64,000 nucleotides of DNA from Elusimicrobiota bacterium (GCA_044221725.1 JBGAON010000005.1:160001-224000), one strand, 5' to 3'; positions 1 through 50,040 are shown, counted from the stretch's first letter. Notes: generated from the sequence alone by a model not told the origin. Numbers and translations: made by a program.

Positions 1-1346
1 CGCGCATGCACGATCTCGCCTCGCAAGGCCTCGTCGTTGAAGAATTCTTAGATGGAGTGACGCGCTACACATTGAAACTGCCGACAAACGCGGTCGACTT
101 GCGTGCGGACTCTGTTTCGACGAATTCTGGGGGCGCTGCGTCAGCGGCGGGCTATCACGGGCTTATCGTGTTTTTTACGCCGAGTCGAAAAGTTTTGATC
201 GCTTCCGTGCTTTTGTTGGTAACAGAAATTGGCGGACTTTTGTGGGGAAATTCCCATTCGTTGTTGCTTGGGGCCACCATCGCTGCCGCGGCTCCGTTTC
301 ATGTCGTTTTTGCGGAGCAAGGCAAAGATCCGTGGCTCGCGCGCGCCAATCAAAATGACCAGATGCTCGGTCATGTGTTGACTTGGGGGCTTTATCCGCT
401 CGCGTTTCTTGCGATGCGCGGCTTATCGGCGATGATGTTGCCGTTGCCAGCGGTCGCTTATGTTCCTCTGGCCGCTGCGGTCGCCTATCATTTGCAAAAA
501 GATTTTCGCTATTTCCGCCAAACGTTGAACCGCATTCGTGCTGCTGAAAAAATTGCGGCCGTGAATCACGCAATCGAAAGTTCCCCAGCGGATTCCAACG
601 GGAATGCGAGCGTGCAACACGTGCTCGCGAATCTTCGAGCGCGGGATCGCAAAGATGGCGGTCTCTCCAAAAATATTTCGGAACTCACGCCACATTTAAC
701 GAACAAAATTTGCACGTCACCGCTGTTGAGATGGTCGCGGATCGTCATGTTAAGCGCTGCAATGTTGGGGACGAACGGAATAAGCCAAGCGAACACCGCC
801 AACGTGAAGCTCGACCGCGGGAGCAACATCGTCACGGTTGTGGTTATGGACGCGAGCGATGTCGAAGACAAAAAGGGAAGCCTGTTGCACGACACGCTGC
901 GCAATATCGAAAAGCAGATTCGAGAGGGGAAGCTTGGCGCGACGGTCACCGTGGCCATCCCGGAATCGATGGTGGAAGACGCTTCCGCTCTCAGGGAAAG
1001 TGCCAAGCGATTGGCGCTTGATTTTGACGTTCCGGTCGTCGTGACGATTGACCGCGCGATAATCGGTCGAGGATTTGATCAACCGAACCGTTTCACGTTG
1101 AACCAACACTACGATGACGCTACGAGAGAAGTTGATAATCACGGTTCGCACAAGGCCGCGGAAAAAATTCGTTTCTACCAAAACAAAAATTTTGCGGGCG
1201 TGAACGTGAAAGTGGTGGCTTCGAAAGCGACGCCGTACACGGCGAATGGCGCGCTGACCCAAATTGCGCAGATGACAATTGCTGGCGTGACGATTTCTAT
1301 CAGCGAAGCAATCAAGCTCGCCGAACTCGCCTACAAGATGGCGTAA
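1..1346 (+). CDS. 3' part of a membrane protein, probably another member of the giant-protein family (5' end outside window)
   Basis: Frame is open from the window edge. It has a hydrophobic TM bundle, then an alpha/beta C-terminal domain ending ...ISISEAIKLAELAYKMA* (GCG TAA), like the ends of the three downstream giants. Confidence 0.7.
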   Translation, partial: RMHDLASQGLVVEEFLDGVTRYTLKLPTNAVDLRADSVSTNSGGAASAAGYHGLIVFFTPSRKVLIASVLLLVTEIGGLLWGNSHSLLLGATIAAAAPFHVVFAEQGKDPWLARANQNDQMLGHVLTWGLYPLAFLAMRGLSAMMLPLPAVAYVPLAAAVAYHLQKDFRYFRQTLNRIRAAEKIAAVNHAIESSPADSNGNASVQHVLANLRARDRKDGGLSKNISELTPHLTNKICTSPLLRWSRIVMLSAAMLGTNGISQANTANVKLDRGSNIVTVVVMDASDVEDKKGSLLHDTLRNIEKQIREGKLGATVTVAIPESMVEDASALRESAKRLALDFDVPVVVTIDRAIIGRGFDQPNRFTLNQHYDDATREVDNHGSHKAAEKIRFYQNKNFAGVNVKVVASKATPYTANGALTQIAQMTIAGVTISISEAIKLAELAYKMA

Positions 1347-1423
1347 CACAATCCTAGTCGCTTTTTTCCGTCGATCTTTAAGCAAACACATCTATAAATC
1401 AGTTCGTTTTTCGACGGAATTCG

Positions 1424-1477
1424 TTTACTGAAAATTTACTACTTCTTAAGGCAAACTTAATCCACTTCCGATAGCCT
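1424..1477 (+). promoter_or_regulatory. Conserved promoter box, copy 1 (TTTAC-N6-TTTAC-N5-CTTAA-N6-CTTAA-N11-TAnnnT)
   Basis: TTTAC at 1424 and 1435, CTTAA at 1445 and 1456, TAGCCT at 1472. Spacing is identical to the copies at 29152 and 35177. A GGGAGG RBS precedes TTG 1507. Confidence 0.8.
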
Positions 1478-1506
1478 GTCTTATAAGAATTCGGGGGGGA
1501 GGCCTT

Positions 1507-4500
1507 TTGATTCAATTCCGACGCGTATCCACGATGATATTTGCGCCAAAAACAATCGCGATTTTGTTGGTTTCGGTTCTCACATACGAAACTGTTGGTA
1601 CACCTCTAGCAGAAGCCAGTCAATACAGCTCGCTGTGGTCCGAACGACGCAAAACTTCCTCTGCCACTCAAAACGAAAACGGCCAGAATCTTCTCGCTTC
1701 GCTTCCGTCCCAGTCTCTTCTGAAGCAAATGCCGTCGGTGAAAGCGGCGCTTCCGTCCTCCGTCGTAACAACACCGATCTCGAATGAAGCAAGAAAAATT
1801 CCGCCGGTGTTGCGCGCGCTCGTGGCGGCTGTTCCCCAGAATCAGGGCATCGTGAGAGAAATTTATGCTCCTCTCTCATCGAGCAACGAACCGATTGTGT
1901 TGGCGCAAGACGTGCACATGAATTCGGAAGCGCAAATGAATTTGGCCGGGGTCATCCAAAATATTGTGCGCGAAAACAAAATTGATGTGATCGGAGTTGA
2001 AGGAGCGTTTGCGCCGTTCGATTTTGCTCTCGCACGCAAAAGCGGTTCAACGGAATCGCGCACACAATTGGCCAAGGCTTTTATGGACAAAAAACTCATG
2101 GGCGCTGCTTCCTACATTGGTCTCGTGAACGATTCGCTACCGCCCATCGTCGGTGTCGACGATGAGAAACACTACGATGCGAACGTGCTTGCGTATTTGA
2201 CGATCCGGCCGATGAAAAAGAAGACGCAGAAAGACCTTCAGAAGCTCAAGCGAAACTTGGATGAACGAAAGGCACAGGAATTCTCGAAAGAAATGCTCGC
2301 GTTCGACGCGTTGCGCAGCGGTTACCACGAAGGAACAATCCCGTTTGGTGTGTATGTAAAAAAGCTTTCGGCGCTCAGCTATCAGCTTGTTGATAGTTCG
2401 TCTTCGCCGGACAGCGGAAAGCGGATCGCTGAAAGCTCTCTCGCCGTTGAGCAGTTCATCGCCGCGTACGAAATGGAAAAGTCACTCGACTTTGCGCGCG
2501 TCGAAGCCGAACGCCGACGCGTGATCGAGAAACTCGCATCGGTGCTCAAAGGCGAGGATGTCACGACGCTCATCAATCACAGCGTTGCGTACAAGAACGG
2601 ACAGATCGGTTTTGGAACTTACTACCGTTTCCTTAAAAATTTGTGCGAAAGCAATGGCGTGCGCCTAAGCGACACGACCGCGTTCGATAACTACGTTCGT
2701 TATGTCTTGCTGTCCGACGGTATCAAAGCGGATCAATTGTTCGCAGAAATCACGAACATAGAAGACCGGGTGACAAAGGCGCTCGCACGCACGCCCGTCG
2801 AAAAGCAGTTGGCTGACGAAGCCGAGCATCTCGCGCTGGCGAACAAGCTCATTGAGTTTGAGTTGACGCCGGAGGAATGGGCCAAGTATTCGTCATCCGG
2901 GCATGATTTTGGCCGGGATCTAGGTGCTCTTGAGGATTTGACCGCTTTTGAAAATTTCTACCGTGAAGCCGATATCCGCAGCCACCGCATGCTCTCGAAT
3001 TTGCTGGGACGAAATCGCCAGCGGGCATCGGTTCTGCTCACCGGCGGTTTTCACACCTCGCAAATGACGTCGTTGCTCAAAGAGAAGAAAATACCCTACA
3101 TCGTCGTGTCGCCGAAGCTCACAAAAGTCTCTGAGGACGAATCGGGCAGCGCGTACCTAAGCGAATTCTCACGGGAAAAAACTCCGCTTGAGAAAATGTT
3201 CAGCGGTTCAAAACTTTTTGTTCTGCCAAAAACACAAATGGCCGGTTCGGCGGGCGGCCTCACAACATTCAAAGCGTTTGTGGTTTTCTTGATCGGTATT
3301 GCCGGCCTATCCACGGGAAAAACCCGGGCGGATGTGGATTTGACCATCAACAATGTTCCGGTGCACGCGGTGGTTCAGCGCGGCGATATCCGCGGCGCTG
3401 TCGAAACCGTGGAGTTATCAGAGAAGGGTACCCCACAAACCTATTCTCTTTTGTATCCGTCGCTTTCAGCGCGCGGCATGGATTTCTTTTTTAATCGCGT
3501 CGCTTCACCGAAACGGCTCGTCATGGCCTTGGGCGGCATTTTAAGCGCTGTATTGCTGTCGCCCGCTCCGGCTCAAGCGGCTTTGGCCCCAAGGCTCTAT
3601 GGCGTGGCCGCCGAAACGTTGTGGGGGGCCGCCGGTGGCGCGTTAATTTTTTCGCTTATCATCGGCAATTTTTTGTGGACCCGTTTCAATACACGGGAAC
3701 CAAGAGTGAGCCCGCAACCCGACAATCGTTTTCGTCCAGGCCTCGACCAATTGGAGCAAAAAGAAACCCCGGCGAACCTGAACGTGTGGGTGGATCCGAA
3801 TGGTGTTGTGCGCCCCGATGTTTTAACCGGGGGATTTAGCGATCAAGAATCAAAATCCGGTTTGCCGAGCGTGGAAGTTCGATTGGCCGATGGTTTCCAT
3901 TTCTCGAACGGGGATCTCGTGCGCGTTTCGCTCAGTGGTCCGGCGGGTTCGCAATCTTCCGGCTGGGTTCCAGCGGCCGATCGCATGGTTTTCCCCTACC
4001 ACGGCGAAACGGGCATGGGGCTGCGCGCCGTGCATGCGGATGGAACAGACGCCGTCGCAACTGCCGTGCCGGGAAGTTTCGCAACGGCAATCCCCGTCTC
4101 GGAAGCGGCGCCTGGCAATCTCGGTTCGTTCGATTTGTTTACGGTGCGCACGCCTCCCGAAGAACCGGTTCAAGACCGAATCAGCGTGAACAACCAAAGC
4201 GTGAACGGTGACCGCGTGCAATTGCAGTATTCGTTACCGTCCGACATGTTGGTTCGGTTCTCGCACGTAAACGCCGGAGCCAACGGCCAAACCGAACTTG
4301 GGTCGGGAACCGACTTTTTACCGGCGACACAGTTTAAAGACGGATACGCGATTCTCATTGCGAACGGACCGCTGAGAGCCGGGAATTCTGCTGATATCGG
4401 ATTTGCGGCGTATCGGTTGGATGCCTCGGGAAATTACGTCGAAGTGAAATTTCAGCCGGGGGAACCCGATTTGCCAATAACGGCCACGCTGGCGAACGCC

Positions 4501-7500
4501 GCCATGATTCCTGACAACCGCTTAACACCCACCAACACCTACACGCTTCAGCCGGACGGAATGGGTGGGTTTTTCATGAACGTGCCGGCGGGCACAAAGA
4601 GCGTTGCTTTTACCGTGAACAGCTTGGCCAACGCCGATCAATTCGTTTTCACACAATCCCATAAAAATGGGAACGGCGACATCGTTGTGGATGCGTTGAC
4701 GCCTTTTGCTTCGGACGACCAGCATCGTTACGTGTTGAACCTTTTACCGGGCGTGACCTCCGTCGGAATTGCGGCGTTTGCGGACAACCAGATTGTGAGC
4801 ATTCCCGATTCCGAGTTTGCGATTGGTACGGTGTTTGAAAATATAGCGGCTGATGCGATGGCGAACAACGGCCGATTGCTCACATTGACGCAAGATCAAA
4901 AAGCGGCGTTCGTGGTGGTAGATCCGGCGAACACGGGACACGTTCAAATTTTCGCGCCCGATCAACCGAACGCGAACGAATTCTTCATTGTTCGTAATCG
5001 CACGGACGAATTCGGCAACACGGTCGCTATTGACGCGCAGATCGTTCCTGATAATCAAACGTTCTATTCGGTGAATGTTGATGATCCTCGCACCACATCG
5101 GTCAGTATTCGACCGTTATCCGTTTCTGATAAGGGTTTCTCCGCGGTGCCCTTTGCGAACGGACTTCTTAAAGCGGATTTAACCAGGCAGTCGGTCGCGA
5201 ACGCACTTCCAATGACGGTCCGGCTGTTGCAGCCCGGGGACAAACAGGGAACGAGCTTCGTGATGACCGTGAATGCCGAGGTTCGGAACGTCAAGCTGCG
5301 CGTGAACGACTTGAACGGGGATCGGTTGTTCGTGACTTATTCCCAGGAAATTGCGTTCGAGGACGGAACAAAAGCAAATGTGCCAATGGTCGCCGCCATC
5401 GAACCCGACAACGAAGGATCGTATTCGTTTAACAAGCCCGAGGGCGCAAGCGGATTTGGTTTCCAAGAATTGATTCGAAACGCGGACGGTAGTTTCGATT
5501 TCACGACGATACCGTTGGACAGTATTGTTATCGCGCAAACGGCGAGGCGCGCGGACCCGAACGCGCGCGCAATGGAGCTTCGGATCTTAACCCCGGCATT
5601 CTTTGCAAATGCCGAGGGCGTGAACGAGTTGCGCTCGAACATTCTTGGAATCGCCATTCCCGAAGGGGCACAAAGTTTCGATGTGAACGAGATCGGACTG
5701 CGAATTCCTTTGAGCGACCACGTCAAATTTAATTTCACAAACGCCGAAGGGAAGATTATTTCCCAATTCGTATTGCCGCCTTTCGGTTCGTCCGCTTATA
5801 ACGCGCTCGTCTCGAGTGGAAAATTGCGTGTGACCGTGAACAACGGATACTTCACGTCAATCGTCCTCAATCTACAAACGGCTGGTGCCACGGCTTTTGC
5901 AATTGAAGTAACGCGGCCAAACGGAGCGCCCGAGCCTGTGGTGGGCACTGTTACCGTTCGCTTCTCTCCCACGGTGGGCCAACGCTCGATTGCGCCAATA
6001 GCGGTTTCTCCTTCCACGAATCCCCAACCGGTGGTCAACATTTTCCCGCAGTTTCCGTCGAACCCCTCCGTGGGACTTATCGGTTTCGGCGGGTCGTCTC
6101 TCGATAACACAACGTCCTCTGTTTTCAGTTACAGCAACATGAGCGGGCGCTGGCAGTACGATATCGGTATCGGATGGTATTGGGTCGACTACACAAAGAG
6201 CGGTGCGCCCAGTATAACGCCTGCAAAGAATAGGCCTCAATTGGAAGATGTGCCGCTCAGCTACAGCATTGTTATTTCGTACCGGCTCGAGATTGGGAAC
6301 GAGACGCCAAATGTTCAGGCGCTGTTGAGGAATGACGGTACCCTTATCGTTGAACGCGATATTAATATTGATCAGGCTCCGCTGGAGAGCGTGACGCTCA
6401 ATGGCCTTGTCGACGACAATGGAAATCAAATTGAAAGCGTGAACGTCCGCTTCGTGGCGCGGGGGCGAGAGCGAGAACTCAAAAATCTTAAAGTCACGAA
6501 CGGGAAAATCAGAATTCGTACGCCGATTGATCTGCCGACCACGACGCGTTTTGAAATTCGGTCCGCCGAAGGCAAGCGTGTTGGAAAACCATCCCGCATT
6601 GAAGTGAATCAAAATGATGAAGGCTTGCTGCCGGACCAAGCGCCGATTGTTGTCGATAAAATGCCGACGCCGTTAAAAACACAGTTGCCGTGGAAAGGTG
6701 TTCAGTTTGTATCGGCGCGTCACACGTCGCTGGGGGATGCTCCGGACGCGGCGGAACAAAATGCGGTGGCCGCAATCGAAGGTCCTTTTGTTGGACAAGC
6801 GTCGCAAACCAACGGAACGAGCCGTGCCAGTGAAACAACGTCCTCGCCGAGTTTTGTCGTGCGCGTGCTGTGGAATTATTTCGGTTGGTTGATTGGCCCC
6901 GTGTTGTTCGTGGCTTTTTTTATTCGAGAAACCGTCGAGAAGAAATTAAAAGCAATTCCACGCGCGGACAGCGCGCGCGAACCAATTGTGATCGACGGCC
7001 TGGTGCCACCACCGAACAATCTAATTCCCGCGGTTGCCGACATGCCGGCCGCGGTTCCCAATTCGACCGTCGCCGTCTCCGAAGGCCGCTCGCCTCCGGT
7101 GCGCCACCTCATTTTCGCCGCCGTTTTTTACGCCGCACTCTTTTTCGTCGTTCTTCCTTTTGTTTCTACCACGCTCGCTCATTGGGGCGACCTGTTGTCC
7201 GCTCTTCCGTCCACCAGCCCATGGATCTTCCCGGCTCGCGCGCTTCAATCGATAGTTGGTTTGTCGTCGTGGATGCTGTTCTTTACCGGCAATGTTGTCA
7301 TGGTGCTCATGCTGCTCAATTTGCAAACGCGGTTTCACGTTGGGCGCAAGGCCTTGTTGGTTCAATCGCTGGTGTTGTCGGCCGCGGCGGCGGCCGGGCT
7401 TGTCAGCGTCAGCACGGGACTCTTTATTCTGGCAACAATTGGGTTTGTCGCGATCTCGCGCACGAGACTGGGAGCGGCGGTTGGTCAATGGATCGCACAT

Positions 7501-10500
7501 CCATTCAAAGAAGCGGACCCCAAAGAAAAGAAACAACTTTCGCTGCTCGGAAGATTTCAACAATCAATCACACATTTGCCGCTGGGTCTCATGAAGACGA
7601 TGTATTCGTTCGGCTTCGAACCGATCGATCGATTGGTTCTTTTGATGATGGGTCGCCCGGTCGCCGGCGAACGGAGCCGCTCGGAACGACTGTTCAATCG
7701 CATGCCGCTTGTAGCGCAATTAATGGCGTTGCCGTTCTTCGCGGCGAATGCGCTTCTCGGCAAGCGCCTGAAACTTAAGCTCTACAGTTTCGCGACCCAG
7801 ATCGTTCTCATCACTGTTTTCTCCGGACTCGCTGTTCTTATCGCGCCAATGTTCGGTTTGGACCCAACGCTCACGCTGTCGTGGATGATGAACTTCAATA
7901 TGCTGGATCCGACCGCCACCGGCTGGGCGCACAATGTGATTCAGGATGGTGGCGTCGTCGGTGCGCTGCTGCAAATTTTCACGGTCTTCGCGATTTTAAA
8001 CTCCTATGTGCTGCAGGTGATTCTCACGTTCTTCTCATCGCGTCGCACGCAGCCGAATTTGGGAATTGGTCGCCGGTTTTCATTGTCGTTGCGCTCCGGG
8101 TTTTCGGCGTTCAAATTCCTCGAGGGTCTCCATTGGGTGAGTTTCGAAATCGAAATCCTCAAATACATGAGCGGCTTTGTTTCTCCGCTGCACGATTTGG
8201 TTTTGACGATTGAAGGGCACTCGGGTGTGCTCGGCGCCGGAGATGAAGCGGTGCAACGCGCGGTGGCACCGTTCGGCGTGAGCCCAGACAACCTCACGCG
8301 ATTTATTCCGTGGACCACGGGCTTGAGCCACAGCGAACTTATGCAACTTGCTCCCATTCAACGCACCATCCGTGATCAAGCAAAAGAATTATCGGCGGTC
8401 GTAAAGGCGAGGGACTTAAGTGAGGTCGCAAATCGCCAAGTGTGGCTAAAAGCGCTGCGATCGGAACGCGACACCGTGCTCAAGTCGATCAAGGCGCTCG
8501 AAGATCAGGCCGCGGTTTCACCGGCGGAGCGCGCGATGGTAGCGGAAAGAATGAGCGCGGAGAATAAATGGATTCAAGAAATCGACGCGCTCGCCGCTGC
8601 TGTAACGATCGATACGATTACGCTGGAGCAGAAGCAGATTGTTGTGGCCAAGCTTGGTGAGCGTCTGCAGAGTTCTGAAGCGCAACTCGCAAAGATTAAA
8701 GACGTCGCAACCAAAGCCACTGCCAAACATCGGTCGCACGTTGAGCTGGCGGCGCCGGCCGACACGAACAAAGAGGTCACGGTTCCTGCGGACACAAAGA
8801 ACGGCGCGGGGGGCGGTGGGGACAAAAACAAAACTTTGAATAACGACGATACGGCGTCGCTTCCGAAGAATTCGGCCAACGTGCTTGCGTCCATTCAAAA
8901 GAACGTGGACGAATCCGTAAAACGCGGCGAGCGAGCAGTGGCCGCGGCCCAGCGTGAAACGGCCGCCAAAGATCGTGCCGTTGCGCAGAAAGAATTGGAC
9001 GCGCTCGCGCCGGCGTTGACGGCGCTCGCGGGTCGCTACGAAAAGGTCACGAAAGAATTGCAGGCGCTTCGGGACCGGTTGAAAGCCGCGACATCCGAGA
9101 AAGTGGTTGGTGTTGATTTGCGCGCGGCAAACGAACGGTTCGATGCGGAATCGAAACGCACAAAAGACTTGGTGGCGCGGTACGACAACGACCAACGGCC
9201 GGATGTTCGACATTTCCTGAACATCGTTGAACGAAATGGAATCGTTTTGCGACCCGACAACACGTACGTGGCGCTCACGCGTGCGGATGTTCCGAAACTG
9301 AAATTCGACGCCGCTGGAAAACTGACGCTCGCGGGCTCGAATGGCACCGTGTGGTTGGGCCAGCAAACAATTGAGCGCTTGCGCTTGCACGCCGTGGCCT
9401 CCGCTTTGGGTGCCGATGTGGAAGCGACGCTGCTGCAACTTGGAAGAAATCCCGTGGTCGACGCGCAGTTCGAGTTCGGCCGCGCCGTGTCGGTCGCATC
9501 GGGTCGTGAATATAGCGTGCCGCAAAACCGCATTGGTGGTCTTGCGGTATCCAGCGATGGAAGCCTGGTGGCCGAGAGCGTTGAAGGCACGCTTCGAGTT
9601 CAATTGTCCGAGAAAGGTCTCGACGTGTTCGAGCCGATGTGGCTCGGCAAGAAAATCGAAGTTCTTGAGAAACAAGCAGAATCTTTGAAGCAGAAAAGAG
9701 TTCAAGATATCAGCGCTGCGCTTGAACAAAAAAATGAGGAATTGGCCTCGGTGGAAACGGATCGGAATGTTTTACGCGATCAGGTCGCAGCGCTCATGGC
9801 CAGAATTAATGGCGAAACCGTTCCGCCAAACGTCGTTAATAACGATGTGGTGCTCGTTAATCACCGTGATAACGTTCAATCTTTTGCGGACCTCAAAGAA
9901 AAGGTTCTCGCCGAGTCCGAGAAGCTCAAACAGAAGAACCGCAATGACAAGGGCTTCACGCTCGAAGATCCAACCGATCCGCAATCGCTCTCTCGCGTTG
10001 TGCAATACACGAACACGCAAGAGATTCGCAACGAGCTGAAAGCCGGCAACATTGGCCGCGCGCGTGACCTGTTAAAGAAATCGCTGAAAGGCCCGTCGAG
10101 CCACGGCGGACTTGCCACCACCATTGATGTGCGCTCTTTTGATCTTCGTGCCAACGAGCAGAGCGAAGACTTTGGCCCGATGTTGCTCATGGTGCAAGCC
10201 GGTCTTGAGGTTCTCGTGACCGACGCTCAGAAAGGAAATTTCGACAAGGAGCTTTTCTTCCAATTGAAGGATCTGTTGGATTACGCCCTCTTTTATCAGT
10301 TGCCAACCGGGGAGATTCCGCACGGCGTCACCTGGCGTCTGCTCACGCCCGAACTTCAAATTGATGCGAAAGCGTTCCGCATGATGCATCTGCTTACCGG
10401 TGAAGAAAAATATTTGAAGGCCGCCGACGCCTCCGAGCAGGCGCTCATGAAAATGTACGACCCCCAATCGAAGAAATTCCTTGCGCGCCGCGAAGACGGA

Positions 10501-29143: not shown

Positions 29144-29151
29144 GCGTAAGA

Positions 29152-29205
29152 TTTACATTTTGTTTACGCGTTCTTAAGGAATTCTTAATCCGCGGCGATT
29201 AGTAT
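29152..29205 (+). promoter_or_regulatory. Conserved promoter box, copy 2
   Basis: TTTAC at 29152 and 29163, CTTAA at 29173 and 29184, TAGTAT at 29200. ATG follows 6 nt later with no RBS. Confidence 0.8.
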
Positions 29206-29211
29206 TTCTTT

Positions 29212-35139: not shown

Positions 35140-35176
35140 AATCGCGTCGTTTCTTCGTCGCAGAAAATAGCGTTCC

Positions 35177-35230
35177 GTTACAGAAAATTTACGCGTTCTT
35201 AAGGCGAACTTAAGACAGCATTCGTATAGT
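35177..35230 (+). promoter_or_regulatory. Conserved promoter box, copy 3
   Basis: GTTAC at 35177, TTTAC at 35188, CTTAA at 35198 and 35209, TATAGT at 35225. ATG follows 6 nt later with no RBS. Confidence 0.8.
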
Positions 35231-35236
35231 GGTTCC

Positions 35237-38200
35237 ATGAGATTTTCGTTACGAAAAGGCAGTGCCGCCTTTATTGCCGGTTCTCTTTTTATCACCCAGG
35301 TTCTCACGAATCCGATGTTGGTGCAAACCTGTTTTGCGCAAAACACCGGATTTGGATTGCGCGCCAGCGCCGATATCTGGACGGAACGTTCGAACCAAAT
35401 TGCTCGCCTAAAATCTCCGCAAGCCGACATTTTTCCAACGCGAGCCGCCGATAACGCGTTTAAACCTTTCTTCCAATCCGTCAATCCATTCGCGCGCGTG
35501 GGCGAAACACACATCGAGAACAACGGCGGCCCCACGGTGTTGTTGCTGCAAGACGTTCACATGAATCTTGAGGCGCAAAAGAACATCGGCGAAGTCTTGT
35601 TGCGCACGCCGAAGAATTCCGTGATCGGCGTGGAAGCGGCCGTTGGCCCTTTTGATTTTTCGAAATTCCGTTCTTATCCGGAACCCAAAATTCTCGCGAA
35701 CATCGCGTCCGTATTGCTGCGCGAAAATTATATTTCGGCGATTTCGTGGATGGGACTCACGGCCAAGGGCTCGCTGCCAACGATTGTCGGCGTCGATGAT
35801 TCCAGTTTGTATGTGAAGAACGTCGACGCGTTCAAGAACACAATTGCGATAAAAGCGGATCGGTTATCCAGCATCGAAACGGCCCTGCAAAAACTCGCGC
35901 ATGAAAAAGCCGATTTGTTCTCCGCTGAAGAAAAAGCGCTCGATGCGTTGATCACGAATTACGAAGCCGGCAACGTCACGCTCGCCGCGTATATCCAATC
36001 GTTGGAACAATCGGTTTCAATGGATGCGTTCCCATCGCTAAAAACGTTGTCGGCCGCGCTTCAGCTGGAAGCGCGTTTGGATCAGAAACAAGCCGAACAA
36101 GAAAGGGAACGGCTTGTTCGAAAGATTTCCGCCACCGATTCCGCCGCGCTCCAACAATTAACAGCCCTCAGTATTTCGCACGGCGCCGGCGAAATGGAGG
36201 CTACGACGTTTTATTCCGAGTTCCGCTCCATATTAAATGCGCATCATATTTCGCTCGCAGCGTACCCGCATTTTTCCACCTACGTCGAATACGCAGCGCT
36301 CGCCGACGGCATCAAGCAAGAAAGAATCTTCAAAGAAATTCAGGATTTGACGAAAGCCGCGATCGGAAAAATCGCGCGCCGTGAGCAAACGAAGCAGCTT
36401 TTTAAACAAGGCCGCACGCTTTTTCTTGCAAAGAAGCTTGTAAATTTCGAACTGACACCGGAAGAGTGGAAGGAATATCAAGTGGGTCCTGGATTGCGAC
36501 ATTCCAGGACGACAGCGTCAGTACCTTCCGGTACGAACTTGGAGGCTTTTTTCGACTTCTACCGCTATGCCGAAGCGCGCAACGAGAAGATGGTGAACAA
36601 TCTTTTGAACGCGCGGGGGAATTCGAACACGATCGTTTTGCTTGCCGGTGGTTTCCACTCCGCTGGTATTCGCGCGCTTCTTCGTGCGCGCGGTGTATCG
36701 TACGCGGTGCTCACGCCGCGCATTTCCCAAGACAATCTTGGAAACGGATCTGCTTACTTGGGCAGTTTCATTCGTGATCGCACGCCACTCGAAAAGCTTT
36801 TCTATGGAGAAAAACTAACGGTTGCTGCGGCGGATACCATTCTTGGCCCATCGAACCCAATTGCTCCGGGCCGCCGCTGGTTGCCCGCGGCTGCCATCTC
36901 GTTGACCGCGGTGCTCGCGGCCGCGTACTTTGCTACGGGCGCAAATCCGAATTTGGAATTGGCCACGCTCTCGGCCTGGATAGCGGGCATTTCGGGCGGT
37001 GTCGCGATTCTGTTGAGCGCCCAAGACCGTCGGGCGCACCTCAATATAAATGGAACAGAAATTGAAGCGGGAGCCGAACTTTCGGCGCCCGCCTATCGCA
37101 CGATCAAAGATGTTCCGGGCCTCGGCAACGTGGGATGGAACACGCACCGCTCCTTTGGCACCGTGATCAAAGGCATTGCGCTGGTTGTTTTTGGAATTGC
37201 GTTTATCAAGTTACTGACGAACGTTTTCGAACCGTTTGTAAAAGCGCGCGACGTGATTGCCGTTGGACATTCTCCGTCATTTCCTATGCGCACGGGTTTT
37301 TTCCGATGGGGATTCTTGCTCACGATTGGCGTCGCTTTCTTGAGCATGGTGACAACCACCCGAGCGTACTTCCATCGGTTTGCGCCGGAAAAAAGTTTCG
37401 GTGACCTTCCTGTTGAGAAGCTCAATTCGATGTCGGACGTCGAATTGTGGAACGAGATAAAAAAGAACGGATACATTCGAATTCATGAACGGCTTCCTTA
37501 TCTGCCCCACGGCGGCAGCCGCGTGGAAGGACGGCTTTGGAATTACTTCCTAACCCATTCGGTGGACGAGCTTGTCCCCGATTTCCAAAAAATGGACGCG
37601 TGGACCGTGGCCCAAGTTTTGCAGAACGAAAACATCATGAATCATGAGCACCGGTTGGCGAAACCGCACAAAATCATGATGGCGCTGTCGCACGAGCAGC
37701 GCTCCGATGTGAGCGACAACATGAAGCTCAAATATTACCGCCAGCTAATGGATCCAACGCGTGTAAAAAAAGTGGTCTACATTGCGAGCGAGGTTCGCGG
37801 AATTTTCCACACAGGCGGCATTGGGGTTGTGGCGGACAGTTTCCCGCGCGCGATGCAGGGGTTTGGTCACGATGTGAGTCAGATCCTTCCTTATTATGAG
37901 GGCGTCGGTATCGAAGAAGAGATTTCCAAGAATGTTGCGGCCGGGATTTGGACGAAAAAAGAATTGTTCCAGAAAATCAATGTGCCAATGGATGGGCATA
38001 TCGTTACCGCGACGGTCGTTCAGATTGATCGGCGCGATCTGCCAACGCTTTATCTGATTCAGAATCCGGAATATTTTGGCCGATACACCATGGGGAAAGA
38101 CAAGCGGGGCAAATTAAATCCCTACTTCCCGGCGAATTTGCCCAATTCGCACGCGAGCTTCACCGAAAGAGAGATGTTGACGCTCGAACGGTTCATTTTC

Positions 38201-41200
38201 TTTGCGAAAGCTTGCATGATGGCCATGCCGGTGCTCAATTTGAACGGCAATGGCGAGGCGCCCGACGTCGTGCACGTGAACGATTGGCAAACCACGCTCC
38301 TGGCGCCGTGGCTGCTGTATTTGCGCGCGACCACGCCCGTCGAATTTCAGCACGATGCCGAAGCCAACCCGTACATGCGCGGCATGAATCCGGCCACTTT
38401 TTCTCGGCTAAAGACGTATTTCCAGAAAACGCAAACGGTGTCCACTCAGCACAACGCGGTCTATCAGGGTCTTTTCTCCGAAAGCGCGCGCTACGAAAAC
38501 ACGTTTGATCGGTTGAAAGACAATTCGTGGGAATTGTTTAAGAAAACCGGACTTCCTTGGGATCCGTTCTTCATGCAGACGGACCAAAAAACCGGTGTTA
38601 CCGAAGAGAAACAGCCGTTTTCGCTGCGTCTCCATGGACAATTCAATTTTTCTTTAGCAATGAAGTCCGCTGATGCGAGTTACACCGTGAGCGAAGCGCA
38701 TGCCACGGAATTGGCGGAAGGTGCGTATCCGGAATTGCCCCGGTTTTATTATTCGCTCACAATGGATGAGCGTTTCACCGGTATCAATAACGCCCCGGAT
38801 GTGGAGCTTCGCAATCCGCGAAACCTTAAAGGGATTATTGCCTATGGTGTGACCGATGTTGAAGAGAAAAAGCCACTCAACAAAATTGCGTTGCTTGAAA
38901 AAGTCGGTCTTGCGAGCGGAAACAAGTCCGATGACGAGGCCAAGTTTGTGGTGGGTGTTGTCGCCCGCGCTGAAAAGGAAAAAGGGTTCGACCTTATTCT
39001 CGAGGCGTTACCCGAAGTGTTGCAGGGGCATGAGCACGACACCGTCGTGGTTGTGCTCGCGAGCGGAAACCCGGAATACGAACGCCGCATGCGCGAATTG
39101 CAGGCGAGTTATCCGCGTAACATCAAATACATCGACAAATTCCTTCCCGAGCTAGAGCCCATGATTACCGTGGGATCCGATTCGCTGCTCGTTCCGTCCA
39201 TTTTTGAGCCGTCGGGCCTCACGCATTACGACGCGATGATCGCTGGCACGTTGCCGATTGTGGCCCCCAGCGGTGGGTTGAATGTGGTACGGGATCCGTC
39301 GGAGGGCATCGAAGCCGCCATTGGCTTCATGATGCGCAGCAAGACCTCGATCGAATTGTCGAAAAAAATAGAAGAAGCGCGTCAAATGTTTTTGAACGAC
39401 AAATCGTCGTGGAACCGAATGATCGACAACGCGATGAACACGGACTTCAGTTGGCCCGACTCCGTGGACAAAGTGATGGACTTGTACGAACGGGCGGAAT
39501 TTTTTGCGCGCATTCAAAAAAACAACAAGATATCGATCAAATCTCCGCGCGGAAAACGGCCGCGGCCACAACTCGTTCTCAATTTCATCTTCAATCTCGC
39601 GCAGAATCTCGAGCAAAGATACGCCGACCCGATCAGCGGTCATGATCTTTATAAGAATAGTTTTTGGGGCGCGCCAAAATACGAAGCCGGATTTTTGTTT
39701 GCACTATTGGCGGGCACGTTTGCTGGATTCGCGGTCGTTCTGCCGGTGACCTGGATGGCGTTGGCCGCCGCCACCATCACCACGATGGTAACGTTTCTGT
39801 TGCTCCATCCGATTCGAGCTGGCCCTTCCAAGGGATCGCCCTCGCTACTTGAATACCGATCGCTCGGTATCCTTTTCATATTCCTGCCGTTTCTCCTTAT
39901 TATTGGGCCTTTAGCGCTTGTTGGTTTGTCTTATATTCCCAATGATCGAACCATTCTTCGCGGGAGCATTTTGGCCGCCAGCCTCGCGATCGGAGCTATC
40001 TCAACCATGCCCGGTCACGCCTGGTGGAACAATCATTCGCCGAAACCTCTCACCGCCGCGCACGCATCGTATGGCGCGCTCGATAAATACTTGACCGGTA
40101 CTGCTGTTAGAGAATTGTTGGCTTTTCGCGGGATGCAATTTCGATACGATGAATCCGATTTTCAATATTTTGCAACCAATCCTCGTATCGTTGGTTTCGA
40201 TCGCAAGACACAGAAGATCGTTCTTCAACCGTTGTTTAATTTCTTGGATCCAATTCCGCCAGCGAACTCTCCAGCCGCTGAAAGAAAAGTGATCGTTGAC
40301 AGAAATATGGAATCCATTCTTCGTCTTTCGCCCCCGATCAATCAACAAGGGCAAATCAATCGTGAAGAGTACCACCGCGTCATAAACGATGCTTTTGAAG
40401 GAAAGCTTGATAAGGTCGAGAAATATCGGGTTATCGATAAAATCGCCTCGCACCCCGATCGGATCTTTGACGCGACCGCGGTTTCCGCGCGGGAACATCA
40501 GATTTCCTTTGTTCGCCTCATCGAGCGTTACGAGCGAGGGGAAATAGCGATCTTTTCCTTGCTCGGCGGTGCCGGCAGTCGTGTGATTCAGAAAAGTAAG
40601 AAAATCAAAGAAAGCATTACCAAGGCGATTCTTTCTACGATTGGTATCCAGATTCCAGCAATTGGACTCGGTACCGGCCCCAAACATCCGCTCTTCCTGA
40701 CAATATTTAAGCATTCGATGCTCGTTACGGTTAAAGCCGTGGCACTTGTGTTTAATACACAGTTGGGTGTTAATGACCACAATATCATGGCCGCGGTGCA
40801 AGACGATCCGCATATGACTCGCGCGATCAGTGAGAAGGTCGAAATCTTAAAGAGTCCTGGCAGCGGTATCCCCATGCAGCGCGTGGCCGACAAAAAAACC
40901 AAGAAGCCGGGTGGCGTGCTATGGACCAACAAGAACGGTAAAGAAATTCCTGACAGCGACGTTAATGTGCGCGAAGGGAATGCGATAACGCGGCCGCGCG
41001 GTCCGGGCGCGTTTTCGGTTTTGATTGCCGCGGCGGTGGATGGCACGCTGCTCAAGTTGCACCGCGATGGCCGTTTGTACGGCCTCATTAGCAACGGAGA
41101 AGATTTGGGGGCCATGCCAAACGAAATGGCGGCCAACTTTATGGAAGAGAATAATCTTCCCATTACGTTTTTCCTTGCCGAGCGCGATGTGAAATATCAA

Positions 41201-44047
41201 TTCAAGATTAATGGCCGAACCTACTCAGGAAAGATCCGTGGACAAAAATCGGTTGTACCGGAACAAGATTTGAAACCGGATTCGGGCGTGCCGAACGGTG
41301 AGGACTACGAGTTCTTTGTCGATGGACCCAACAACTTTGTTATCGAAAGACCGAACAAAGATCCTCGCGGACGGTTTGTTCCGCTTCTCAAGAAAAAGGG
41401 TACCAATGAGATTGTTACGCCCACCGATGAACAGGTGTCGTTGATCGAGCCAGACACGGGCGGCGCTTTGGTGATTGATGAGAAAGGAAATTTCGTCATT
41501 GTCGACAAATTTCAGTACGCGGGCACCGACGTTGCTGACCGTATCGACAACGACCGTTACTACAATACAAATCAGGTTCAGTTTAAAATCGCTGACATGC
41601 TGCGTTTCTTTGGTCTTATGGACGCAAACGGATCAACGGAGAGATTTGAAGCGATGTCCCCTCAGATGCGGCTCGACACGGTTTTAAAAGCCACGCGGGA
41701 TCTTCCGTATTCGATGGAAGACATTGATTCCGGGGCCGCGCTCTTGCCGGTGCGAATTCTTGCCACGGTCTTGAAAAAAATGAAAGGCGGCTTTGTGGTC
41801 ATTGACCCCTTCGCCGAGGCCACGCCGTTTAACGGCTATCTCGGTTTCAAAGATTGGAACGATCACATCTTAAAGGCCACTCCGATTAAAAGGATTTTTA
41901 CTCACATTGTTGAAGCGCTCGCGAAAAGAGGACGTTTCCCCGCTGTCAGAGGGGAAATAACGGTCGATAACTTCATCCCGACGTTTACTCCAATCTACGC
42001 GGCGGCCATGGATCATGTTGCGCATCACTTGAACGGCATAGACGATCGGGCCGATTACGATTGGATGGCTTCATCGGTTGGCACCAAGGAGAAGCCGGAA
42101 CCAACGCCGGACACCGTGTTGCAGTTGACGCGATCGGGAATTCTGAACCTCTACAAAAAAGACGTTCGTCGGTATTCTTTCCTACGGGAAAACATGAATA
42201 TTCACAAGGGAAAAGAACAGCAGGACAGATACGTCACGTGGAAAGTGCGGCAAATTTTTATGCGCCTGTTCGCAATGAAAAAGTTCAAACTGGTTTTTGA
42301 GAAATACGGAATTCAAACCGGAGTTTCGAAGGAAGATCCGTACGTGCGTTTGTTGCTCTACACACGCATCGATGATGAACTTGCGGCCGAAGTTGGTGGT
42401 TCGATTGAAAGACTTCATCTTCAGGGCGGATCGACGGATTTGGATGAGGAAGACCTTGAGCTTGGCGAATATAGCCCGCTGGAATCTTCATTGGATGTGC
42501 GACCGGTTCATTCCGTGAGTTTTTTACGTCCTTCCCGTACCGCCCCTTTTGTTGAGGAGCTGACGGTGCTCATTTATGGCCCCATCTTCGCGACCACATT
42601 TGTGTTCATCCAAAATTCATTCGTCTCGTTTGGAATAACGCTCGCTGTGTTGATTTTTATCGCGGGATTTTTAGCGATGATACACACCGAGGTTTTCTTG
42701 CCCAATACGGACGGGACTTACGCGCGTACGGCCGCACGCCCGTCCGACAAAATAAAAATTTTTGGTTTGTTGTTCTCTTTCGCGATTCCATACTTGTTTA
42801 TCTTAACCGTCGTGAGCTTCTATATTAATGTTCCACCGAATCTCAGCTTTATTGAATCGCAACGGGCGATGCGCTCGTTGCCAATCGCGGCGATCGTTTT
42901 CGCCGGTCTGCCAGCGCTGTTGCACTTGGCGTATGTGCGGCGTGTTATTCCCTTCTTTTTGCATCGCTTCAATATTCGTTTGCCGTTCGCAACGATCGCT
43001 GCAGAGCCACTGACCGACCGGGATCAAATCAAGAGAATGAGTAGTGAGCTTACCCCCGAGGCCCAAAGCCTTTTCGTCTCGCTGCTTTTAAAATCAATGC
43101 CGCCGATGGAGCAGCTCGGTTTGGAAAAAATGGTGGAGCCGAAGATCGAATCTTTAACGATGATGCCCATTAATCGTGTTTGGAACAGTGATGAGCGGAT
43201 TGCCGAACGAACGGACGCTGCGATAGCCGTCTATGCTGTTCTCTACAAAGCAGAAATTTATCGGCACGTGAATCATTTGGCGCGTCAAATTTCCGTCGGA
43301 GCGAAGGTGGACGCCAACATTATCAACCGAATTGCGTCGCTCACGGGCACGCTAAATACTTTGGGCAGAGGAGTAAATTCCGAACGGGATCACGCCTTGC
43401 AGGCTCAGCTCGCAACCTTGGGCGCTCTCGCGAGGGCTGCAGAGATTTCCCAATTCGATGTCAATGTCGTGCGAGGATTGCTCGAGAAAACAACGAAAGA
43501 GGCCCCGTTGGCGGCGGATGGCACCGTGAAACCGGCCGATGTAGAAACCAATAGAAATGATTACGGTATCTTTTCGTACCCTGACTTGAGTGGAAACGCC
43601 GACTCCAAAGGCGCTCAGACGGCGCTCGCTGAAATTGGCCAGTTCGTTAAGGCGGCTTCGTTGCCCGGGGCGGAACGGAAATTTGGTTACGTGATTATCA
43701 CGTTGCGTTCGATTGAGGAAAAGGTAGCGGCATTGAATTTCCTCAGTGAAAGAATTCCTGGCGCCATGTTTAAAGAAGGGGATAATATTCGCTTCGAAAT
43801 CCAGGCCCGCACGAATCCTCAACCGTTTATTGCCGACCTTAAAAACAAAGGACTGAACAAGATGTTCGGGTATCCGATCGGAAGCGCCAATTTCGAAACG
43901 AACTGGGATATTTCCGGCTTATCATCAGAAGACTTGGCGCTTTTCTCTCTGCGTCTAATCGGCCTCGAAAGTGGGGAATTGTTTAACCTGGACGACCACT
44001 TCCGCCAAGCCGAAAAGAACATCCAGCTCGCCGAACAGGGCGCTTAG
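35237..44047 (+). CDS. Large membrane protein (2936 aa): shared N-domain, GT5 glycogen synthase-like domain, UDPGP-family pyrophosphorylase-like domain
   Basis: GT5 motifs VVYIASEV..HTGGIG, PDVVHVNDWQT, HNAVYQG, RAEKEKG, VPSIFEPSGL, DFSW. UDPGP-like motifs LLGGAGSR, PRGPG, ISNGEDLGA, TGGALV, YNTNQ, LGFKD. Confidence 0.9.
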   Translation: MRFSLRKGSAAFIAGSLFITQVLTNPMLVQTCFAQNTGFGLRASADIWTERSNQIARLKSPQADIFPTRAADNAFKPFFQSVNPFARVGETHIENNGGPTVLLLQDVHMNLEAQKNIGEVLLRTPKNSVIGVEAAVGPFDFSKFRSYPEPKILANIASVLLRENYISAISWMGLTAKGSLPTIVGVDDSSLYVKNVDAFKNTIAIKADRLSSIETALQKLAHEKADLFSAEEKALDALITNYEAGNVTLAAYIQSLEQSVSMDAFPSLKTLSAALQLEARLDQKQAEQERERLVRKISATDSAALQQLTALSISHGAGEMEATTFYSEFRSILNAHHISLAAYPHFSTYVEYAALADGIKQERIFKEIQDLTKAAIGKIARREQTKQLFKQGRTLFLAKKLVNFELTPEEWKEYQVGPGLRHSRTTASVPSGTNLEAFFDFYRYAEARNEKMVNNLLNARGNSNTIVLLAGGFHSAGIRALLRARGVSYAVLTPRISQDNLGNGSAYLGSFIRDRTPLEKLFYGEKLTVAAADTILGPSNPIAPGRRWLPAAAISLTAVLAAAYFATGANPNLELATLSAWIAGISGGVAILLSAQDRRAHLNINGTEIEAGAELSAPAYRTIKDVPGLGNVGWNTHRSFGTVIKGIALVVFGIAFIKLLTNVFEPFVKARDVIAVGHSPSFPMRTGFFRWGFLLTIGVAFLSMVTTTRAYFHRFAPEKSFGDLPVEKLNSMSDVELWNEIKKNGYIRIHERLPYLPHGGSRVEGRLWNYFLTHSVDELVPDFQKMDAWTVAQVLQNENIMNHEHRLAKPHKIMMALSHEQRSDVSDNMKLKYYRQLMDPTRVKKVVYIASEVRGIFHTGGIGVVADSFPRAMQGFGHDVSQILPYYEGVGIEEEISKNVAAGIWTKKELFQKINVPMDGHIVTATVVQIDRRDLPTLYLIQNPEYFGRYTMGKDKRGKLNPYFPANLPNSHASFTEREMLTLERFIFFAKACMMAMPVLNLNGNGEAPDVVHVNDWQTTLLAPWLLYLRATTPVEFQHDAEANPYMRGMNPATFSRLKTYFQKTQTVSTQHNAVYQGLFSESARYENTFDRLKDNSWELFKKTGLPWDPFFMQTDQKTGVTEEKQPFSLRLHGQFNFSLAMKSADASYTVSEAHATELAEGAYPELPRFYYSLTMDERFTGINNAPDVELRNPRNLKGIIAYGVTDVEEKKPLNKIALLEKVGLASGNKSDDEAKFVVGVVARAEKEKGFDLILEALPEVLQGHEHDTVVVVLASGNPEYERRMRELQASYPRNIKYIDKFLPELEPMITVGSDSLLVPSIFEPSGLTHYDAMIAGTLPIVAPSGGLNVVRDPSEGIEAAIGFMMRSKTSIELSKKIEEARQMFLNDKSSWNRMIDNAMNTDFSWPDSVDKVMDLYERAEFFARIQKNNKISIKSPRGKRPRPQLVLNFIFNLAQNLEQRYADPISGHDLYKNSFWGAPKYEAGFLFALLAGTFAGFAVVLPVTWMALAAATITTMVTFLLLHPIRAGPSKGSPSLLEYRSLGILFIFLPFLLIIGPLALVGLSYIPNDRTILRGSILAASLAIGAISTMPGHAWWNNHSPKPLTAAHASYGALDKYLTGTAVRELLAFRGMQFRYDESDFQYFATNPRIVGFDRKTQKIVLQPLFNFLDPIPPANSPAAERKVIVDRNMESILRLSPPINQQGQINREEYHRVINDAFEGKLDKVEKYRVIDKIASHPDRIFDATAVSAREHQISFVRLIERYERGEIAIFSLLGGAGSRVIQKSKKIKESITKAILSTIGIQIPAIGLGTGPKHPLFLTIFKHSMLVTVKAVALVFNTQLGVNDHNIMAAVQDDPHMTRAISEKVEILKSPGSGIPMQRVADKKTKKPGGVLWTNKNGKEIPDSDVNVREGNAITRPRGPGAFSVLIAAAVDGTLLKLHRDGRLYGLISNGEDLGAMPNEMAANFMEENNLPITFFLAERDVKYQFKINGRTYSGKIRGQKSVVPEQDLKPDSGVPNGEDYEFFVDGPNNFVIERPNKDPRGRFVPLLKKKGTNEIVTPTDEQVSLIEPDTGGALVIDEKGNFVIVDKFQYAGTDVADRIDNDRYYNTNQVQFKIADMLRFFGLMDANGSTERFEAMSPQMRLDTVLKATRDLPYSMEDIDSGAALLPVRILATVLKKMKGGFVVIDPFAEATPFNGYLGFKDWNDHILKATPIKRIFTHIVEALAKRGRFPAVRGEITVDNFIPTFTPIYAAAMDHVAHHLNGIDDRADYDWMASSVGTKEKPEPTPDTVLQLTRSGILNLYKKDVRRYSFLRENMNIHKGKEQQDRYVTWKVRQIFMRLFAMKKFKLVFEKYGIQTGVSKEDPYVRLLLYTRIDDELAAEVGGSIERLHLQGGSTDLDEEDLELGEYSPLESSLDVRPVHSVSFLRPSRTAPFVEELTVLIYGPIFATTFVFIQNSFVSFGITLAVLIFIAGFLAMIHTEVFLPNTDGTYARTAARPSDKIKIFGLLFSFAIPYLFILTVVSFYINVPPNLSFIESQRAMRSLPIAAIVFAGLPALLHLAYVRRVIPFFLHRFNIRLPFATIAAEPLTDRDQIKRMSSELTPEAQSLFVSLLLKSMPPMEQLGLEKMVEPKIESLTMMPINRVWNSDERIAERTDAAIAVYAVLYKAEIYRHVNHLARQISVGAKVDANIINRIASLTGTLNTLGRGVNSERDHALQAQLATLGALARAAEISQFDVNVVRGLLEKTTKEAPLAADGTVKPADVETNRNDYGIFSYPDLSGNADSKGAQTALAEIGQFVKAASLPGAERKFGYVIITLRSIEEKVAALNFLSERIPGAMFKEGDNIRFEIQARTNPQPFIADLKNKGLNKMFGYPIGSANFETNWDISGLSSEDLALFSLRLIGLESGELFNLDDHFRQAEKNIQLAEQGA

Positions 44048-44140
44048 CCTAAACATCTCGTCAAATAGGTCGTTTTCCACTTGCCGTGATTATTGACACC
44101 CCCCGTGGCATTCCCATGACACGCGCGTTACACTCGATTC

Positions 44141-47384: not shown

Positions 47385-47478
47385 CTTAAGATCTCCGTCG
47401 ACAAACCCTCCCGTCCCCTCCTTGTTTTAAAATTCAATCGACCCCCTCCTCGACGCAAGTTTCATTCGTGGAGATGTT

Positions 47479-49740: not shown

Positions 49741-50011
49741 GGCATACCGGATTACCGGGCCTCAAATGCGAAAGTGCGAATTTTGCGGTGGTGATAACCC
49801 GGTCAAAGCCTATTGTTGCTTGCACTGCTACAAGGTTTTGCACCCGAAGTACCACTTGCCGTGGTATCGAAAACACATTTGTTTAACGACGCCAATGATG
49901 ATTGTATTGTTTTGTTTTGTCGCGGTCGTGGTGTTCACATTTAAACGATGGGTTGAAAACGCAGAAGCGCAAGTCGACACATCGATCTCTCGCCCCTTAA
50001 AGACCAACTAG
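49724..50011 (+). CDS. Small zinc-ribbon membrane protein
   Basis: CEFC...CLHC followed by one TM helix; GGAG RBS upstream. Confidence 0.65.
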   Translation: MADVPEAYRITGPQMRKCEFCGGDNPVKAYCCLHCYKVLHPKYHLPWYRKHICLTTPMMIVLFCFVAVVVFTFKRWVENAEAQVDTSISRPLKTN

Positions 50012-50040
50012 GTTTCACGCTCCCCTCCAAAGGAGCTCTC

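Follow-up and report, generated by a model that had tools for sequence, protein, structure and literature searches.

Why does an Elusimicrobiota genome carry, in one run, several very large genes in which glucan enzymes alternate with membrane bundles behind what looks like a single shared N-terminus? We analyzed a window of 64,000 nucleotides (G000:C2:160001-224000), the whole stretch of DNA considered here, from a 2.82-Mb genome (G000) in 5 contigs that is 94% complete. A first-pass annotation had read the array as a coherent, co-regulated glucan route on a constant N- and C-terminal chassis, serving either as a membrane-tethered factory or as a delivery system acting on the glucose stores of a host or prey cell. 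We find a real, well-supported family-level system, a new form of multi-enzyme giant with a recognisable head, membrane module, regulon and partner gene. The array has the following features, in window coordinates:

3..1346, +, gene 0, 3' end (whole gene G000:C2:153757-161346, 2,529 aa, ends YKMA)
1423..1463, +, four-box promoter motif of gene 1 (TTTAC, TTTAC, CTTAA, CTTAA, 11-bp period; leave-one-out score 38.7 bits)
1507..28095, +, gene 1 (8,862 aa, ends GSQA)
1894..3240, +, gene 1 TIKI-superfamily head (D135, H137, E165, R491, H516)
9964..10926, +, gene 1 helical glycosidase-like region (kept in genomes G002 and G004; family label tentative)
12574..16806, +, gene 1 beta-hairpin-rich region of ~1,400 aa (kept in relatives)
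18574..22116, +, gene 1 predicted GT48 (FKS1-like) glucan synthase including TM helices (ED at aa 6471-6472)
24934..25986, +, gene 1 HIT-like nucleotidyltransferase/phosphorylase region (DHIHAH at aa 8026)
28093..29143, +, IS30-family element (transposase 28164-29129; 3-bp target duplication)
29151..29191, +, four-box promoter motif of gene 2, then a -10-like hexamer and ATG
29212..35139, +, gene 2 (1,975 aa)
29494-30636, +, gene 2 Tiki head
31159-32946, +, gene 2 GT35 phosphorylase (43% to the genome's own copy)
34054-34404, +, gene 2 CPBP-like bundle, borderline
35176..35216, +, four-box promoter motif of gene 3, then TATAGT and ATG
35237..44047, +, gene 3 (2,936 aa)
35519-36835, +, gene 3 Tiki head
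37769-39496, +, gene 3 GT5
39650..40069, +, gene 3 CPBP/Rce1-like four-helix module 1 (50.5 bits; the module is part of the profile's training set)
40394-41986, +, gene 3 UDPGP-like domain
42542..42934, +, gene 3 CPBP-like module 2, borderline (19.8 bits, equal to the best decoy level)

The real start of gene 1 may be an ATG nine codons downstream of that listed. Gene 0 encodes a Tiki head, GH18 and hexokinase upstream of the window. The array had been described as three consecutive genes plus the tail of a fourth; the open reading frames are confirmed, strict adjacency is not, as the IS30 element separates genes 1 and 2. It provides the stop codon of gene 1 and leaves the protein sequence unaltered. 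Colinear orthologues of genes 1 and 3 adjoin at the same locus in the G002 genome, where they follow the same, presumably ribonucleotide reductase-like, gene (85% identity). DNA contigs from two other studies touched 30/30 bins of 24101-44100; neither an indel nor a joint is listed there, although no piece spans the stretch. Together, the G002 orthologues and these independent contigs rule out an assembly chimera. RNA contigs from one study covered 24/30 and 22/30 bins, which is not proof of transcription and whose gaps are uninformative. Rfam gave no match in the window.

Both identical IS30 copies (window 28093-29143 and G000:C1:244402-245440) lie just upstream of a family promoter motif, and in other sequencing runs the IS end abuts the sequence preceding family member C3:791181, where G000 has no element; the element may target family promoters. 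Directly 3' of the array, window 44999-55815 holds an Omp85-family gene, Tad/Flp genes (TadE/G, RcpC, CpaF, TadC-like), an NAD-dependent epimerase and a CHASE2 adenylate cyclase. From 59210 to 64000 runs the start of an 18,006-aa ORF (G000:C2:219210-273230) with a signal-like start and beta-rich repeats, five pieces of which gave no Pfam match; an OmpR-type regulator and kinase follow it on the other strand.

At the N-terminus the first reading holds. The N-domain is common to the array genes, and all four have a signal-like N-terminus and, where W(S/T)ER had been described, W-x-x-R near residue 42-48. In a structure comparison (VIA) of the AF2 model of the head (pLDDT 81), ranks 1-5 were ChaN, two Bcr Ere-like proteins, HopBA1 and EreC, at Z 7.2-7.8 and rmsd 3.8-6.6, where unrelated rows already stand at 7.1. 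PF04187 weakly matched 7/23 members (best 5e-7; Pfam on the members not wholly in the window), while the head gave no significant match against PDB sequences or in Foldseek. Residues D106, H108, E133, R448 and H474 are invariant in 26/26 G000 paralogues, and among 244 public proteins they are kept in 235, 241, 242, 244 and 244, respectively. The order of this two-His/two-acid plus Arg set is that of RRSP, a match of motif order and not of superposed residues, the RRSP catalytic set being E3900, H3902, E3930, R4001 and H4030 (PMC6254334, in part). It is the structure ranks, PF04187 and these residues taken together, and not Z alone, that place the modelled head in the TIKI superfamily. Members of this superfamily (Tiki/TraB, ChaN, EreA, HopBA1 and MARTX RRSP) have the same residue set (PMC6254334, in part), whereas the head departs from TIKI hydrolases in its first acid, which is Asp and not Glu, in a large helical insert and in its placement at the front of a polyprotein. 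We infer from sequence that the head acts as a hydrolase. Four other genomes (G033, G034, G038 and G015) and the locus L181:17794-19665 have short ORFs (567-715 aa) made up of little besides the head, possibly stand-alone enzymes.

A profile built from the three array N-domains recovered 26 paralogues of 775-8,862 aa in G000. Named relatives of the array N-domain are all Elusimicrobiota, including Ca. Obscuribacterium magneticum (79 loci), which is assigned to order F11 (10.1101/2022.07.08.499144, in part). The head occurs in 16/30 relatives, nearly all-or-none by family, with 16-49 matches each (matches, not copy numbers), and in 95/401 Elusimicrobiota genomes, G000 counted. In one family, f18, 49/79 genomes match; this is apparently Endomicrobiaceae, judging from the names (Endomicrobium, Endomicrobiaceae) of the relatives of two of its heads. 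Beyond the phylum, matches are named Omnitrophota, Ancaeobacter and Theseobacter, the Omnitrophota proteins being 1,300-2,700 aa long, and a search of 1.84 billion cluster representatives returned 9,880 matches at E up to 0.001 and 6,602 clusters at E up to 1e-30. First-look head candidates number 2-9 in the genomes of f18 genus g82 (0.9-1.3 Mb) and 20-54 in most of those measuring 1.8-2.4 Mb, a pattern that would fit loss of repertoire as genomes become smaller. In another genome, two head matches with identical scores at G006:C49:80244 and 102777 lie in 12,118-aa frames on opposite strands, a duplication or an assembly artefact.

What follows the head differs from member to member, so the swappable-cargo plan proposed for the array holds at the level of the family. 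Among the 23 members not wholly in the window, Pfam identified adenylate kinase, dehydroquinate synthase, HD, 2-hydroxyacid dehydrogenase, sigma-70, PP2C, FHA, WD40, protein kinase, beta-CASP nuclease, GGDEF and uridine kinase domains, with no match in 6/23 and the head only in 3/23. Because this cargo is functionally mixed genome-wide, the chassis is not glucan-specific; functionally random cargo, named at the outset as the outcome that would speak against a glucan route, is what the family as a whole presents. The cargo needs ATP, NAD, SAM, NDP-sugars or RNA polymerase, and it doubles housekeeping genes (GT35 at 43% and GT5 at 25-30% to the genome's own copies). We estimated signal peptides and TM counts from hydrophobicity windows, by which 13/17 members checked have hydrophobic segments ahead of the cargo and 4/17, including a P-loop kinase and an HD domain, have no TM from the head to the cargo or to the tail end.

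The family is also held together by its promoters. Every array gene is preceded by its own TTTAC-TTTAC-CTTAA-CTTAA boxes with an 11-bp period, which rules out a single operon for the array. A matrix from the four window genes only placed 21/22 other members above the 99th percentile of 3,328 other ORFs, and in leave-one-out scoring 25/26 members reach 19-43 bits. Genome-wide, 41 sites in G000 exceed 16 bits, 25 of them before family genes, with 0 in one shuffled contig strand. In other genomes the motif precedes 68/89 of the head genes read (shuffles, 0). It was not found before the f18 examples, nor before the two head genes of G071 or those read in G015 and G223. The co-regulation first proposed for the glucan route is therefore real at family level, 25 of 26 paralogues sharing the motif, and does not single out that route. 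At a constant distance beyond the boxes stands a TAnAAT hexamer, with ATG, GTG or TTG 6-8 bases on in 19/27 sites (start codons counted without site-by-site verification of frame; gene 1 is the exception), and we infer that family promoters are probably activator-dependent and leaderless. Generic sigma-70 and terminator scans gave nothing above chance. We take the four boxes to resemble OmpR/PhoB-type sites (PmrA/CpxR/PhoB). Nine OmpR-type regulators are encoded in G000; none of their genes has a strong motif before it, and none is singled out as the regulator. In Legionella PmrA/CpxR, a winged-helix response regulator steers dozens of scattered effector genes (PMC6989116, in part); scattered genes under one motif are the shared trait, the likeness is an analogy only, and the candidates here are the nine OmpR-type proteins.

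The full motif also precedes an 8,369-aa giant without a head and a 609-aa TPR protein. Both G000 TPR paralogues lie directly 3' of family genes, one TPR gene follows the G002 array, and close TPR homologues occur in 11/11 genomes of the family and 0/19 others; the TPR protein is presumably a chaperone. The headless giant (G000:C5:256705-281814, L023 and L024, with L193) has a motif of 43.5 bits, a similar signal and a KSQA end, and upstream of it lies an operon of PorV-like, TolC-like and double RND genes with a CTTAA-only motif. At G000:C3:793565 a 42.6-bit motif stands right after member C3:791181 with no family gene following and a radical SAM gene 116 bases on, perhaps an orphan promoter.

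Many of the membrane bundles prove to be four-helix modules with P-x-x-E, FxxxH and HxxxN. The FxxxH/HxxxN pattern gave 88 hydrophobic matches in the family, with reversed copies and other ORFs yielding 4 each; modules were seeded by it, so the presence of these motifs is circular within the alignment. The resulting CPBP profile finds 121 modules in 84/243 family proteins, up to five per chain, and no reversed sequence or other ORF scores as high as 20 bits. With E up to 1 allowed, 7/41 modules match PF02517 (best 7.7e-7), and neither window module does so by itself; one family protein is annotated as CPBP by NCBI, and the profile did not recover Rce1 from the PDB. Of the array genes, gene 3 contains a clear module and a borderline one and gene 2 a single borderline one; genes 0 and 1 contain none. 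Among 116 modules, EExxxR occurs in 3, EE in 17 and PxxE in 48. The CPBP catalytic motif is EExxxR (PMC11980579, in part); with the full motif in only 3/116, most modules are probably non-catalytic, and non-catalytic CPBP proteins do exist (PMC13692083, in part). The family thus shares with CPBP/Rce1 proteases (PF02517; PMC11980579, in part) a four-helix module with E, FxxxH and HxxxN, but repeats it up to five times per chain between cargo domains and mostly leaves EExxxR incomplete.

The other end of the protein is far less constant. A chassis constant at both termini had been proposed; the N-terminal half of that claim stands, while the tail is constant only in its terminal Ala. Post-head BLAST among the 26 paralogues and 3 other giants gave 6 matches, none between window genes. 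A tail profile from 109 relatives placed 6/26 members above the 99th percentile of 726 decoys, and profiles of lengths 200, 120 and 40 recovered 6, 2 and 6 of 26 members. BLAST and tail profiles together rule out a constant C-terminal chassis, the tails forming small clusters. Terminal Ala, found in all four array genes, is shared by 21/26 members versus 83/726 other ORFs of at least 400 aa (p 5e-15), and generally caps an amphipathic helix; the helix with its Ala is a candidate sorting signal.

For the glucan cargo itself, Pfam on window pieces gave no GT48, UDPGP, HIT or glycosidase match, and searching the PDB with single sequences came back empty or at E 0.39, only profiles being informative. 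The original GT35 (PF00343) and GT5 (PF08323) calls are borne out by Pfam matches. Compared with the genome's own copies, GT35 keeps GYKR and EASATGFQK, and GT5 keeps the GG loop, R-x4-K and EPSG, which we take to be the catalytic motifs of the two enzymes. The GT48 call was likewise upheld: Pfam missed the window protein, whereas an 8-sequence profile matches FKS1 at E 1.9e-7, and PF02364 is found in 4/8 members. Among sugar enzymes this profile matches FKS1/GSC2 only, with no GT2 chain listed and the ED motif aligned, and the homologues match PF02364 (best 3.6e-8) versus PF13632 (best 1e-4); Atlas placed the region near cellulose synthases (0.91). With ED invariant in the 8 homologues, the gene 1 region is, on this sequence evidence, a GT48 (FKS1-like) synthase with a predicted product. 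We assume that DFD in the window GT48 (DFD/DTD in homologues) sits where Fks1 has DAN; the first Asp is invariant in the homologues, and the FKS1 profile alignment did not reach the stretch. Fks1 uses the DAN motif (PMC12715860, in part). The gene 1 enzyme resembles Fks1 (PMC12715860, in part) in the aligned ED motif and the profile match, with PF02364 above cut-off in the homologue from G398, and differs in being bacterial and inside very long ORFs.

Other cargo labels fared less well. The UDPGP domain is upheld as a homologue of eukaryote-type UDP-glucose pyrophosphorylase (best profile E 9.5e-5 over ~60 residues, all 13 PDB matches being UGPases), but its motifs are degenerate, with PGPGA/PPGA lacking the His of PPGH and NGED/NGDD replacing NGDN (N-x-D-N). 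The HIT transferase rests its name on DHIHAH, which we take to be the HIT family motif; the region is kept in one relative and has no domain-library match. The glycosidase-like region, kept in two relatives, also has no domain-library match. Gene 1 residues 3701-4900 were blank in Atlas and modelled at pLDDT 47 by AF2, and Foldseek returned Rhs, teneurin and DDB1 (TM 0.07-0.11, rmsd > 30), which shows only that there are many beta-hairpins.

Degenerate UDPGP-like motifs, mostly incomplete CPBP motif 1 and unalignable tails are what one would expect of a domain-capturing family whose cargo is mostly inert, so that the head alone matters. We consider this improbable: GT35 and GT5 motifs are kept, the GT48 ED is invariant across 8 homologues, reading frames as long as 26 kb are uninterrupted and colinear in different genera, and the RNA contigs over 24/30 and 22/30 bins point the same way without proving transcription.

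If the cargo acts, does it act as one route? Glucose or glucan enzymes occur in 4/4 array genes versus 0-1/22 others (post hoc p 3e-4; Pfam misses divergent cargo). GT48 occurs in 6/11 family genomes and 22/401 phylum genomes, always in ORFs of 1,686 aa (contig-cut) to 11,500 aa. Its neighbours include an NTP transferase in G002 and UDPGP in G369, and it is fused to GT5 in G400, while the neighbours read in G015, G223 and G071 gave no sugar-nucleotide or GT5 match. G002 lacks the hexokinase and GT35 genes at the array locus, no family gene accompanies the GT35 orthologue in the part of G001 that was read, and Pfam found no phosphoglucomutase in the four array genes. GT5 and GT35 moreover run in opposite directions. 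These directions, the gaps in G002, the isolation in G001, the lost His and the missing phosphoglucomutase disfavour a fixed route. What survives of the proposed route is a local theme, seen in the four array genes and in the GT48 neighbours of three genomes; it is not the purpose of the chassis, and the four-gene set does not recur.

A GT48 complete as a membrane synthase, with ED intact, is most easily placed in the cell's own membrane, which leads to a reading of the giants as platforms there: the head would be periplasmic, TM bundles would return cargo to the producer's cytoplasm, the regulon would remodel metabolism and surface in some special state, and gene 1, fed by its neighbours, would make a beta-1,3-glucan located in the periplasm or capsule. 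We regard this, the main rival reading, as possible, if on the doubtful side. In its favour, GT48 adjoins NDP-sugar enzymes or GT5 in three genomes besides G000, TM segments precede the cargo in most members, and no injection system was found in G000. A G398 protein with GT48 and GH76, from a family with the head in 0/50 genomes, carries no head and also fits; this protein (L184:5148-14345) is 3,066 aa long, with GT48 above the Pfam cut-off and weak GH76. Nielsen and Lui list own-membrane platforms as an option for Omnitrophota giants (10.64898/2026.06.07.730766, in part). Left unexplained are the TM-less members in which a signal peptide precedes cargo of ATP or SAM type, and the sharing of one hydrolase head by 26 hypervariable copies carrying redundant enzymes and sigma domains.

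We are inclined, tentatively and with slightly less than even confidence, to see the array as belonging to a set of exported polyproteins that has expanded in this lineage, is induced together and acts within the cell of a host or prey. Of the factory and delivery options first offered, delivery is thus slightly favoured, for the family and not for glucose stores alone. A single response regulator would switch on all members together, and the signal peptide would send the chain out. The Tiki head would be an active hydrolase processing the chain or a partner substrate, membrane bundles would anchor the chain, and the few intact CPBP modules may cut it. Cargo enzymes would then work in a cytoplasm other than the producer's. 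The array would be the glucan subset, in which GT35, GT5, hexokinase and sugar-nucleotide enzymes would turn over glucose stores and GT48 would export beta-glucan across the membrane.

Several observations count for delivery: the TM-less members with nucleotide-type cargo (4/17), the redundancy of cargo with housekeeping genes, and the conserved active-site residues of the head. So do the constant peptidase-like N-terminus with variable cargo, a layout of polymorphic effectors (PMC3482391, in part), and the single motif before 25/26 scattered genes, kept in relatives as in effector regulons (PMC6989116, in part). Host dependence is proposed or partly shown for Omnitrophota, Endomicrobium and Ancaeobacter, and head relatives bearing these names count in the same direction. 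Against delivery, T3SS, T4SS, T6SS and a contractile-injection sheath, searched with one marker each, were not found in the 94%-complete genome, which has Tad, T2SS/T4P ATPases, Omp85, PorV-like and RND/TolC genes. The missing injection marker counts against this reading, as do the TM ahead of cargo in 13/17 members, the incomplete EExxxR, cargo that is not of classical toxin type and the lack of a host on record for the lineage. We know of no precedent for a many-helix GT48 moved across the outer membrane into another cell. Delivery and own-membrane readings may hold for different members. A bolder form of the delivery reading, rather unlikely in its full extent, is a contact-dependent system of Elusimicrobiota, Omnitrophota and kin, in which one regulator would induce dozens of Tiki-headed polyproteins with signal peptides; escorted by a TPR chaperone and cut or anchored by CPBP modules, these would enter a partner's membrane and install captured metabolic and regulatory enzymes there, GT48 draining the partner's UDP-glucose as exported beta-glucan.

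A third placement would put the proteins outside the cell or in the periplasm as degradative platforms digesting prey wall or stores, as proposed for Archaeovorins. Signal peptides and the GH18 of gene 0 would suit it, and the beta-rich region of gene 1 recalls the tube of West-Roberts et al. (10.1101/2023.11.21.568195, in part). Hydrolases are a minority of the identified cargo, however, most of which has synthetic or regulatory roles that depend on cofactors of the cytoplasm, and we give this placement little credence.

A shared hydrolase head, a promoter and a candidate chaperone turn the giant multi-enzyme proteins of Omnitrophota and Elusimicrobiota from oddities into one testable system. 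A bacterial GT48 is also relevant to how the beta-1,3-glucan synthases of fungi and plants arose, and gives a new way into this enzyme class. Elusimicrobiota are rich in huge proteins (PMC11573180, in part), and West-Roberts et al. (10.1101/2023.11.21.568195) and Nielsen and Lui (10.64898/2026.06.07.730766), both in part, describe membrane-rich multi-enzyme Omnitrophota giants with unannotated N-termini. Tiki, CAAX and Rce1 are absent from both main texts, whose supplementary domain catalogues may list some; promoter and glucan synthase are absent from the main text of 10.1101/2023.11.21.568195, and the portion of PMC11257099 consulted does not mention giant proteins. No relevant description of the head, CPBP, promoter and GT48 combination was found in the literature searched, with subscription papers outside its scope. 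New here are the shared promoter motif, the degenerate CPBP/Rce1 bundles, the TPR gene with the motif and the GT48 in gene 1.

The closest known systems are the Archaeovorins or "multi-enzyme metabolic" giants, with which the family shares a signal peptide, many TM helices and divergent enzymes including GT5, GT1, hexokinase, HIT and NUDIX (10.1101/2023.11.21.568195; 10.64898/2026.06.07.730766, both in part). Archaeovorins belong to host-dependent lineages and have unannotated N-termini, and the head described here also occurs in Omnitrophota. SecA DEAD and C39 had no match in the family among the Pfam matches shown. Polymorphic toxin systems with releasing peptidases, including the PrsW type (PMC3482391, in part), and MARTX chains (PMC6254334, in part) share with the family a constant peptidase-like N-terminus, swappable domains and membrane peptidase modules. 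Pfam scans gave no toxin family, and no immunity gene was seen in a non-systematic view of the neighbours. The family differs from both: from the Archaeovorins in having 26 mid-sized paralogues (775-8,862 aa) per genome and not single chains > 30,000 aa, and from polymorphic toxins and MARTX in cargo that is metabolic and regulatory, with several domains per chain.
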